A DNA stretch of 64,000 nt, from the IMG/VR virus record IMGVR_UViG_3300035136_000101; one strand, 5' to 3'. The stretch is from a virus. The notes below the pieces were generated by a model. The model did no database searches, was not told the origin of the DNA, and worked only from the letters and a program-made list of their open reading frames with translations. Each line of letters starts with the position of its first letter. The stretch's first letter is position 1. This document shows, one piece after another, positions 26,043 through 27,597 of the stretch. Made by a program: the position numbers and the translations under genes.

Positions 26043-26252
26043 ATGAAGGGATATGGTTTGCCTAGGAATAATGATGTTGAACATCCAGATGTGGCTGATA
26101 TATGTCTGTATGGATTGAATACATCATCTGGTGGTAAATGTTATCAAAAACCGGGGTCTAAAAGTAGGTCAAGGAGGATTTGGAAGAAGAAAGAGAGAAG
26201 AGAAGCAAGAAGATATTGCATGATTTTTTTTGAAGAAAGGATGGATTTATGA
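26043..26252 (+). CDS. hypothetical basic protein
   Basis: ORF track; Arg/Lys-rich C-terminus. Confidence 0.35.
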   Translation: MKGYGLPRNNDVEHPDVADICLYGLNTSSGGKCYQKPGSKSRSRRIWKKKERREARRYCMIFFEERMDL

Positions 26253-26767
26253 AAAAAGACGGATGGGATCGAGCTGAAGAAAGATGGAAGAGAACTGCAA
26301 GAAAAGGACCATGGTCATTATTTGCGAAAATTGTTGTTACTGTGCTTTTATTGAGTGTAATTTTTGGAGCAATTGGTATGGTTTGTGGGACAGCAAAGGA
26401 GGCTGTCCAGGTTGCAAGGGATGAATTTGGTCCAAAAGCACTATTGAAAAAGTATGAATGGTTCAAAGATATGGCTGCAACTTGTGATAAGTTGAGAGCA
26501 AATATCAAAGTAACAGAAACTAGAATTGGTCAAATGGAACAGGATTACAGTGGAGTTCCTAGAAATGAATGGGATAGAGTTGATAAACAAACGATGTCTC
26601 AGTGGAAGGCCGAGTTCGCAGGAATAAAAGGAGCGTATAACGATGCTGCTTCTCGTTATAATGCTCAAATGGCCAAGTTTAATTGGAGGTTTACAGAGAT
26701 AGGGTCTTTGCCTGAAGGGGCAACAGAACCACTTCCTAGGGAGTTTAAGCCGTATGTTGAGAAATAA
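26249..26767 (+). CDS. LemA-like membrane protein
   Basis: N-terminal TM helix (FAKIVVTVLLLSVIFGAIGMV) and C-terminal YNDAASRYNAQMAKFNWRF resembling the LemA family YNxAVxxYNTxIxxFP segment. Confidence 0.45.
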   Translation: MKKDGWDRAEERWKRTARKGPWSLFAKIVVTVLLLSVIFGAIGMVCGTAKEAVQVARDEFGPKALLKKYEWFKDMAATCDKLRANIKVTETRIGQMEQDYSGVPRNEWDRVDKQTMSQWKAEFAGIKGAYNDAASRYNAQMAKFNWRFTEIGSLPEGATEPLPREFKPYVEK

Positions 26768-26936
26768 TAGAAAGATCATAGAATCAAAAAGAGGTTTTAC
26801 GCTTGTTGAATTGATGGTAGTTTTGATTATATTGGGGATTATGTTTTCCATTTCCGTTTATGCAATAAGAAGTTTTTTGTCAGAGAATAGAAATATTGAT
26901 GAGATTGTAGAAGATGAAAATGTAATAGAAATGTAG
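26754..26936 (+). CDS. type IV pilin / pseudopilin-like small protein (prepilin-type N-terminal motif)
   Basis: KRGFTLVELMVVLIILGI = class III signal peptide G|FTLVE with hydrophobic helix. Confidence 0.5.
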   Translation: MLRNNRKIIESKRGFTLVELMVVLIILGIMFSISVYAIRSFLSENRNIDEIVEDENVIEM

Positions 26937-26976
26937 GTAATTATTTGGTTGTAAACCAAGAAAGGAATGATGAGTT

Positions 26977-27597
26977 ATGAAAAGGTTGTTTTTTGTTGGA
27001 TTGTGTGTGATTTTTGTTGGATGTATACCTGATTTTGGTGAAAAAGAAAATAAAGCGCCACGATCAAAATCTGGGGTAAAGGCGGCTAGAGTAAAAGTAA
27101 AAACGAATGAAAAAGGTTTGACGGTTGAACAAGAAAATGTTGGTGCTCGTTTGAAAAATGATAGTGATGGAACATCAATAAAGCATTTGTATCTTGTTTC
27201 TGCATATACAGGAGATGTTCTTGTTTATTCGACTGTGAAGGGGAAAGTAACATCTTCAGGTAAAAGATTGACACCATATACTGTTGCTGCTGGAGCTATT
27301 TCTGATGGTCATGGTAATATAAACCATTATGGAATTCCTATTGTTGTTAATGGGACACAATATAGAACATCAGAGATTCTTCAAGATGATGGGACATATG
27401 GTCATTCAATGGAATATTTGTTTTGGCATGATATAAATGGTGTTTTTAGAAAAACATATGTTACGGGTGGAATAATGCCAATTATTAGTGCTGAACCAAT
27501 GGCTTTTCCAAAAGTTATTTTGAATGTGGATGATTCATGGTCGCCGAAAAAAAATAAGTCAGATGATGCATTATCTTCAAAAAAAAAATCTGAATAA
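26977..27597 (+). CDS. putative lipoprotein
   Basis: signal peptide MKRLFFVGLCVIFVGC with lipobox-like FVGC. Confidence 0.5.
   Translation: MKRLFFVGLCVIFVGCIPDFGEKENKAPRSKSGVKAARVKVKTNEKGLTVEQENVGARLKNDSDGTSIKHLYLVSAYTGDVLVYSTVKGKVTSSGKRLTPYTVAAGAISDGHGNINHYGIPIVVNGTQYRTSEILQDDGTYGHSMEYLFWHDINGVFRKTYVTGGIMPIISAEPMAFPKVILNVDDSWSPKKNKSDDALSSKKKSE

Follow-up and report, generated by a model that had tools for sequence, protein, structure and literature searches.

Why should a phage genome carry a minute gene with a prepilin N-terminus, wedged between the genes of two envelope proteins? The question is raised by a metagenomic virus, IMG/VR record IMGVR_UViG_3300035136_000101, of which a stretch of 64,000 nucleotides (nt) was analyzed (hereafter the window). 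On its plus strand lie an open reading frame (ORF) of 172 amino acids (aa) for a bitopic membrane protein (A2, positions 26249-26767), a 60-aa ORF for a mini-prepilin (26754-26936) and a 206-aa ORF for a lipoprotein (A1, 26977-27597). The initial annotation had described three consecutive genes here, and all of them were found at exactly these coordinates, in the same orientation and tightly packed. The first 14 nt of the mini-pilin ORF are shared with the end of A2, and the 40-nt gap between the mini-pilin and A1 ORFs contains a purine-rich stretch; within the block 26249-27597 no terminator-like sites were found, and promoter-like sites are not in excess. The same three genes are called on ten public contigs that have an identical lipoprotein, and all three are under purifying selection. 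Judged from sequence, this module probably alters the surface of the infected cell.

The central protein was said by the initial annotation to have a prepilin N-terminus, and profile searches bear this out. It scores above the cut-offs of both Pfam PF07963 N_methyl (E=1.3e-8; 34.4 bits, cut-off 21.2) and TIGR02532 (E=1.2e-8; 34.4 bits, cut-off 16.3), and it also matches short-pilin PHROG families, phrog_10597 among them. Residues 1-14 constitute the leader MLRNNRKIIESKRG, after which come FTLVE and a run of hydrophobic residues whose mean Kyte-Doolittle hydropathy is 2.7. The context of the cleavage site, ...SKRG followed by FTLVELMVVLIILGIMF, represents a class III signal with a basic N-terminal flank and ~20 hydrophobic residues; the predicted prepilin-peptidase site between G14 and F15 falls between nt 26795 and 26796, and the codon of the glutamate at +5 (E19) is found at 26808-26810. 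The window has 519 ORFs with 30 aa or more, and no other among them has the prepilin motif; across 19 related mini-pilins G14 (G-1), F15 (F+1), T16 (T+2) and E19 (E+5) are invariant. The predicted mature protein has 46 aa and comprises a hydrophobic alpha1-N helix and a 21-residue tail, net charge -6; a C-terminal globular alpha/beta head is missing, leaving helix and acidic tail only. The closest solved structures are the N-termini of the Geobacter 'geopilin domain 1' and of PilA. By these sequence features the 60-aa ORF is a genuine prepilin, truncated and helix-only rather than a canonical pilin. Related phages in which identity has fallen to 41-65% retain its gene in the same place, and its ratio of nonsynonymous to synonymous differences (pN/pS) is 0.40-0.55 at higher divergence, which is consistent with a coding gene under purifying selection with weaker constraint than its neighbours. 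A limited, word-index search for homologues of the mini-pilin returned matches from the window's own phage clade alone, and the annotation of the flanks over 10 kb on either side does not list the Peptidase_A24 family.

The two flanking genes form a unit of their own. Loci were collected with A1 as the seed from species-representative genomes and IMG/VR and with A2 as the seed from IMG/VR and metagenomes, and were searched in six frames with hidden Markov models (HMMs) of both families. A1 and A2 are adjacent and on the same strand in ~190 of the 203 fetched loci. In the A1-seeded set this holds for 64 of 65 genome contigs and, among loci with a strong A1 match, for 36 of 37 viral contigs; in the A2-seeded set it holds for all 16 viral contigs and for 74 of 80 metagenome contigs. 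The exceptions are mostly cuts at contig ends or weak relatives of A1, and in one viral locus (L083) the pair is 2.8 kb apart. The window proteins match their HMMs at 2e-80 (A1) and 1e-77 (A2), with the genes 210 nt apart and the pilin gene between them. Either gene may come first, and in Melainabacteria A1 is often present twice. Clustering of the ORFs of 110 loci yielded no third conserved neighbour gene, and Pfam scans of the Chroococcus and Obscuribacter flanks found unrelated genes there.

Carriers of the pair include Patescibacteria of the candidate phyla radiation (CPR), Poribacteria, Obscuribacterales, Melainabacteria, the cultured cyanobacterium Chroococcus, and phages, jumbo phages among them, with viral contigs reaching 370 kb. 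In one Parcubacteria (CPR) genome the pair is flanked by housekeeping genes (adenylate kinase/Met-aminopeptidase and PP2C/UvrD), and in Poribacteria it occupies one syntenic chromosomal locus in ten assemblies. It is very abundant on contigs of the Hainich groundwater metagenome, whose names indicate 0.1-0.2 um filter fractions, and identity across phyla is ~45-50%. Distant pairs are also found in DNA-metabolism regions of two cultured actinophages. Arthrobacter phage Hestia gp66 and Microbacterium phage Floof gp29 match the A1 HMM at 4e-13 and 6.5e-15, respectively; the adjoining proteins Hestia gp65 and Floof gp28, which have transmembrane (TM) helices, match A2 only weakly (E ~0.01-0.02) and are therefore called A2-like on the basis of their architecture. 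Rhizobium phage RL2RES_180 has a clear A2 relative (8e-17). Apparent A2-A1 fusions among longer matches (P0261, P0264 and others) were rejected, as they look like frameshift or run-on artefacts. From gene content and order, A1/A2 is an autonomous two-gene unit that moves between bacterial chromosomes and phage genomes. The loose three-gene cassette envisaged by the initial annotation stands as far as the genes are consecutive, but its flanking pair is an obligate two-gene unit and the pilin a facultative insert.

Some pairs come from genomes labelled as archaeal. In a metagenome-assembled genome (MAG) of an 'uncultured archaeon', contig CAYUTF010000008.1 (L013) carries a module near-identical to that of the window (A2 96%, mini-pilin 98% nt identity), and it is therefore probably a mis-binned contig of the window's phage clade. 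Two Nanoarchaeota MAGs (L016 and L054) hold more distant A1/A2 pairs on short contigs, which may be viral too.

How closely is the mini-pilin bound to this pair? Four canonical prepilin ORFs were present in 108 non-redundant loci (979 kb), namely in L009, L062, L108 and L110, and all of them lie within 12 nt of the pair and on the same strand; with ~4% of the sequence counted as adjacent, four out of four gives p ~4e-6. An independent A2-seeded set (427 kb) contained two further prepilin ORFs, both inside the module, one from the window clade (L146) and one from a new lineage (L152). Across ~1.4 Mb of A1/A2 loci, prepilin ORFs are always inside the pair or at most 12 nt from it, and this association extends over at least six lineages. 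The A1 protein beside the mini-pilin has its own export signal in all three loci checked (L062, L108 and L110), so that mini-pilin and A1 are separate genes and not split ones. A 124.5-kb Logan contig of a related phage (SRR28393039; L128:4001-4324) harbors two diverged tandem mini-prepilins of 52 aa each between A2 and A1. Within the window clade the A2-pilin-A1 block has been kept while its neighbours were rearranged, RlaP being upstream of it in L009 and downstream in the window. A comparison of the window with L129:3496-4853 reveals a mosaic, with pS 0.13 and pN 0.010 in A2 against pS 0.43 and pN 0.17 in A1; the divergence switches inside the mini-pilin gene, which suggests an exchange of lipoprotein alleles. 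Taken at the level of sequence and linkage, the mini-pilin is a facultative, recurrent and non-random third component of A1/A2.

A1 was predicted to be a lipoprotein, and this is supported by its N-terminus, in which an MKR n-region and a hydrophobic core lead to FVGC, with the signal peptide MKRLFFVGLCVIFVG preceding the cysteine. The codon of the predicted lipidated residue, Cys16, is located at 27022-27024. Position -3 of the lipobox is a non-canonical F; the N-terminus varies across the family, the cysteine is retained by at least 90% of the 60 members compared, and a lipobox is present in at least 94 of 120 A1 homologues. Beyond the cysteine follow a variable linker, a conserved domain of ~150 aa that is helical and beta-rich, and a Lys/Ser-rich tail. 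The domain contains the motifs SGVKKA, GLTVEQ, IKHLY, KGKVTSSGKRLTP and LQDDGTYG; 28 of its alignment columns do not vary, and polar residues make up many of these (E51, Q52, H70, K90, S93, K96, R97, E133, Q136, D137 and D138). An AlphaFold2 model gives this helix plus beta-rich structure, with a mean predicted local distance difference test (pLDDT) score of 73.6, and its lowest-confidence parts are the most conserved loops, GKRLTP and DDGTYG. Homologues are numerous (1163 at E<=1e-3 among clusters at 90% identity; 379 clusters at 50% identity), and none has a Pfam domain. The N-terminal anchor is interchangeable among them and may be a lipobox, a Sec signal or a pilin-like segment; N_methyl is found on the protein's own N-terminus in 5 of 60 A1 proteins (~8%), and both of the two contigs with pilin-type A1 that were examined look phage-like. 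A 531-aa Band_7 protein is encoded near the pilin-type A1 in L122.

For A2, hydropathy and the positive-inside rule predict that the basic N-terminus lies in the cytoplasm and that a single TM helix spans roughly residues 22-46 (nt ~26312-26386). The extracytoplasmic part is modelled by AlphaFold2 as a helical hairpin (helices 62-99 and 110-143; mean pLDDT 82.8), followed by a conserved, extended, proline-rich C-tail, LPxGAxxPLPREFKPY. The 202 homologues contain no Pfam domain, and a pN/pS of 0.07-0.24 indicates strong purifying selection. The initial annotation had called this protein LemA-like with a single TM segment. The TM helix is indeed predicted, but the relationship to LemA found no support, as the window A2 gave no match to the LemA profile (PF04011) at E<=0.1. 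A weak LemA signal was obtained with 3 of 51 A2 relatives (best E=0.0017), MamQ appeared at E=0.22, and no LemA structure was among the matches in structure-library searches. There is a general resemblance to LemA and MamQ in the N-terminal TM helix, the helical extracytoplasmic domain and a YNxxxxxxN motif at a similar position. A2 differs, however, in matching LemA below every significance threshold, in its proline-rich tail, which is not known from LemA, and in its partner A1; LemA genes are often paired with those of TPM-domain proteins. Neither A1 nor A2 has a significant family in Pfam, PHROGs, NCBIfam or PADLOC. Profile searches of the PDB gave noise only, and Foldseek searches of BFVD for a function of the pair returned one unnamed viral protein only. 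Two further ideas were rejected: that A2 and A1 mimic PilN, PilO or PilP, for which there is no fold or sequence support, and that the C-terminal tail of the mini-pilin mimics the A2 C-tail, as no consistent similarity is seen across lineages.

What could such a module do? The three genes would be co-transcribed and would act as one non-structural envelope module, in which A1 and A2 may be joined in a complex on the outer side of the cytoplasmic membrane. The A2 tail would dock on A1, with the disordered, invariant tail and the invariant, low-confidence loops of A1 as the candidate interface. In the clade of the window phage, one or two mini-prepilins of type IVa (T4a) have been inserted between A2 and A1, and the same association of a pilin with A1/A2 has arisen in at least five other lineages. 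The host prepilin peptidase would cleave the mini-pilin, and the resulting 46-residue, helix-only pilin would reside in the same membrane as A1/A2 and could, together with them, enter or jam the host machinery of type IV pili (T4P), of the type II secretion system or of Com. The surface of the infected cell would be remodelled, with the most likely purpose of keeping out superinfecting phages or of preventing the adsorption of progeny. By analogy with known systems, it is plausible that a phage pilin-like protein engages the host type IV filament machinery, and likewise plausible that the envelope or the type IV pilus is modified, as in superinfection exclusion. A three-part pilus/surface-modification module as a whole is put forward tentatively, at a likelihood that falls somewhat short of even. 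It is unlikely that A1/A2 is a two-component envelope system that works physically with pilin helices, has the mini-pilin as its third subunit and thereby allows phages to take over or shut down host pili; one version of this idea would have a split pilin with a detachable head (A1 as the head, A2 as a membrane chaperone), another a plug of the type IV assembly platform.

Several observations speak against the proposed three-part module. The interaction of the three proteins is deduced from gene linkage only, and the T4a hallmark Pro22, present in relatives, is Tyr in the window allele. Moreover, ~95% of A1/A2 pairs have no pilin partner, and the core function of A1/A2 therefore needs no pilin. 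The stable chromosomal position of the pair in Poribacteria and CPR points to a cellular envelope role over an anti-phage one, and in combination with the many pilin-free pairs it suggests that the core function may be general envelope biology.

The module can be compared with described systems. Prophage-encoded FimU mimics enter the pili of Pseudomonas aeruginosa and block phages whose binding site is the pilus tip (Sztanko et al., Cell Rep 2026, PMC12952977). The same work noted, without testing it, a family of truncated PilA proteins of ~60 residues in six lytic Pseudomonas phages and proposed that such a P-PilA is incorporated into T4P or blocks T4P (PMC12952977). The window mini-pilin resembles truncated P-PilA in its canonical prepilin N-terminus, its length of ~60 residues, the absence of a head and its occurrence in non-temperate phages; comparable mini-pilins are encoded in the early regions of the cultured lytic phages Ab06 (ORF_028) and KVP40 (KVP40.0030). 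Phages of the P-PilA type, however, do not have A1/A2, whereas the window mini-pilin is embedded between A2 and A1, has a strongly acidic tail and is present in two copies in one relative. P-FimU, in turn, is a full-length minor pilin, and the window protein a helix-only peptide.

Geobacter sulfurreducens builds its pilin from the products of two adjacent genes, PilA-N and PilA-C (PMC5174107, PMC10710030). The arrangement in the window is similar in that a beta-rich exported protein has its own gene directly after that of a short pilin of T4a type, which shows a short leader, Phe1, Glu5 and, in relatives, Pro22. A1, however, is not homologous to PilA-C, is a lipoprotein and showed no pilin-head fold; the obligate partner A2 has no counterpart in Geobacter, and most A1/A2 pairs are pilin-free. 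Helix-only pilins of ~45 aa can form filaments (PMC10710030), and the Tad/Flp pilins (40-60 aa, helix-only; PMC10710030) share with the mature mini-pilin a single helix of ~45 aa, a hydrophilic C-terminal patch and the lack of a head. They differ from the window protein, which has T4a hallmarks, a short leader and a glycine directly before FTLVE. The annotated genes around the module include no Tad genes. The Flp motif and the long leader of Tad pilins are presumably both absent from the window mini-pilin.

The phage exclusion proteins T5 Llp, TP-J34 Ltp and T4 Imm/Sp, which are expressed in the infected or lysogenic cell, are comparable in being non-structural phage proteins located in the envelope. 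They have no sequence or fold similarity to the module, and A1/A2 is also a stable chromosomal pair in several bacterial phyla and far more conserved than known exclusion proteins. A non-homologous look-alike trio was also seen in Aeromonas phage Asfd_1 (genes 158-156; L126:1637-3377); it consists of a charged 205-aa protein (by eye maybe coiled-coil or SPFH-like), a pilin-like protein with a long N-terminal extension and a Gly/Ser-rich lipoprotein.

Which other explanations would account for the locus? A1/A2 could be a cellular pair for envelope homeostasis or biogenesis, carried by phages for the upkeep of the host envelope, with the pilin helices as a mere anchor or adaptor and no type IV machinery involved. 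A Parcubacteria genome has the pair amid housekeeping genes, the 10 Poribacteria assemblies share a syntenic chromosomal position for it, and it is highly abundant in Hainich groundwater contigs; its ~45-50% identity across phyla is unusual for arms-race proteins, the pilin is missing from most pairs, and the interchangeable A1 anchors fit as well. A plain TM anchor, however, would not keep G-1, F+1, T+2 and the charged Glu+5 across all lineages, mini-pilins are encoded separately even where A1 has a lipoprotein signal of its own, and one lineage has duplicated and diverged mini-pilins; on balance we regard this explanation as possible but rather unlikely. Still less probable, and in our view quite unlikely, are two independent morons, the mini-pilin being a truncated PilA mimic by which host pili are poisoned or decorated without any partner, and A1/A2 being an unrelated neighbouring cassette. 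Stand-alone mini-pilins of 59-82 aa without A1/A2 do exist in cultured lytic phages (Ab06, KVP40 and Vibrio phage 1.081.O), and solitary action has been proposed for truncated phage PilA (PMC12952977). Independence is difficult to reconcile with ~1.4 Mb of loci in which prepilin ORFs lie inside or abut the pair and nowhere else (p ~4e-6 in the first set), with the 14-nt overlap between the mini-pilin gene and the end of A2, and with the fusion of a pilin-type N-terminus to some A1 proteins.

Such fusions could instead be taken to mean that the mini-pilin (PilA-N-like) and A1 (PilA-C-like) are two chains of one subunit polymerised by host machinery, with A2 as a membrane chaperone. The truncated T4a-type pilin directly upstream of an exported beta-rich protein, as in Geobacter pilA-N/pilA-C (PMC5174107, PMC10710030), and the best solved-structure matches of the mini-pilin, to geopilin domain 1, agree with it. 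Most A1 proteins, however, are lipid-anchored, which should hinder their extraction into a fibre, and A1 shows no pilin-head fold; in place of a continuous alpha1 helix, the fused forms contain a linker of 15-20 residues that is not conserved, and the universal partner of A1 is A2, most A1 having no pilin partner. A split pilin is thus improbable. Least credible of all, to the point of being almost negligible, is a two-component spanin of the Rz/Rz1 type that would disrupt the outer membrane at lysis. The topology of A2, an N-terminal TM helix and periplasmic helices, is i-spanin-like and A1 is a lipoprotein, but A1 is conserved and globular (~190 aa), whereas o-spanins are short and unstructured, the sequence conservation of the module is extreme compared with known spanin diversity, and no holin or endolysin match was found among the neighbouring ORFs scanned. 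Homologues lie between housekeeping genes in CPR and other cellular genomes, and distant ones are found in phages of Arthrobacter and Microbacterium, which are monoderms and hence without an outer membrane; with members in cell genomes and in phages of such monoderms, both a spanin and a virion protein are excluded. Conservation as virion structural proteins had been named in the initial annotation as a finding that would overturn a surface role. No such structural role is indicated: the block of terminase, portal, protease and T4 gp23-like capsid genes (40.7-49.8 kb) begins ~13 kb downstream of the module, and its two larger genes occur in cellular chromosomes.

With the three-part surface module as the preferred reading, its phage context can be considered. 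The source phage is a metagenomic contig of about 158-173 kb whose capsid protein is 25-31% identical to those of T4-like phages of diverse hosts, and no near relatives were found among cultured phages. The lysogenic conversion raised as a possibility in the initial annotation finds no support in a T4-like capsid, a genome of ~160-170 kb and an integrase that was not seen, though no integrase-specific search was made. Around the module are small ORFs and nucleic-acid-metabolism genes, including an RlaP-like nucleotidyltransferase (27633-28613, downstream of A1), DUF3268 and an SNF2 helicase. A perfect 16-nt palindrome with the core GCGAACTCGAGTTCG occurs at 12 sites in the window (3003, 8869, 13533, 20291, 25800, 28660, 32723, 40033, 44786, 51846, 61073 and 63186) versus 0 expected, and these sites mostly appear intergenic. 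The palindrome may be a transcription-unit punctuation or operator motif. Two terminator-like copies, one upstream at 25800-25815 and one past the RlaP-like gene at 28660-28675, flank the block that contains the module and may represent the two ends of its transcription unit.

Other features of the window were recorded in passing. GC skew across positions 1-64000 is extreme and uniform, with (G-C)/(G+C) at ~0.2-0.55 on the plus strand and a GC content of ~33%, and nearly all ORFs of at least 100 aa are on the plus strand. A transfer-messenger RNA (tmRNA) is located at 36178-36528 (Rfam RF00023, 109.4 bits; ARAGORN tag peptide VRHNDSQVWAEAA), to which cultured phages give no match, and a tRNA-Pro(UGG) at 37227-37302. 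An 884-aa protein with a major-vault-protein shoulder domain (PF11978), unusual for a phage, is encoded at 21203-23857; it is conserved in the related phages L009 and L128, where it precedes the module by ~2-3 kb. Downstream of the module are genes for a SocA/Panacea-domain (antitoxin-like) protein (29676-30161) and an AdoMet-decarboxylase-family protein (35448-35762), the latter assigned to PF02675 through the equivalent gene of the identical contig L001.

The statistical link between A1/A2 and a mini-pilin appears to be new, and a full-text literature search found no description of it. In its pilin part the module varies a kind that the literature had noted before; the A1/A2 pair is uncharacterised and widespread. 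With a mini-pilin placed in a defined context with two partner genes, a concrete three-protein hypothesis becomes available. Distant pairs are apparently present in cultured, genetically tractable actinophages (Hestia gp65/66 and Floof gp28/29), which makes experiments feasible. A1 and A2 are conserved orphan families without a Pfam family, fold match or annotation, and a function for them would give meaning to a feature that recurs in CPR envelopes and in the early regions of phages.

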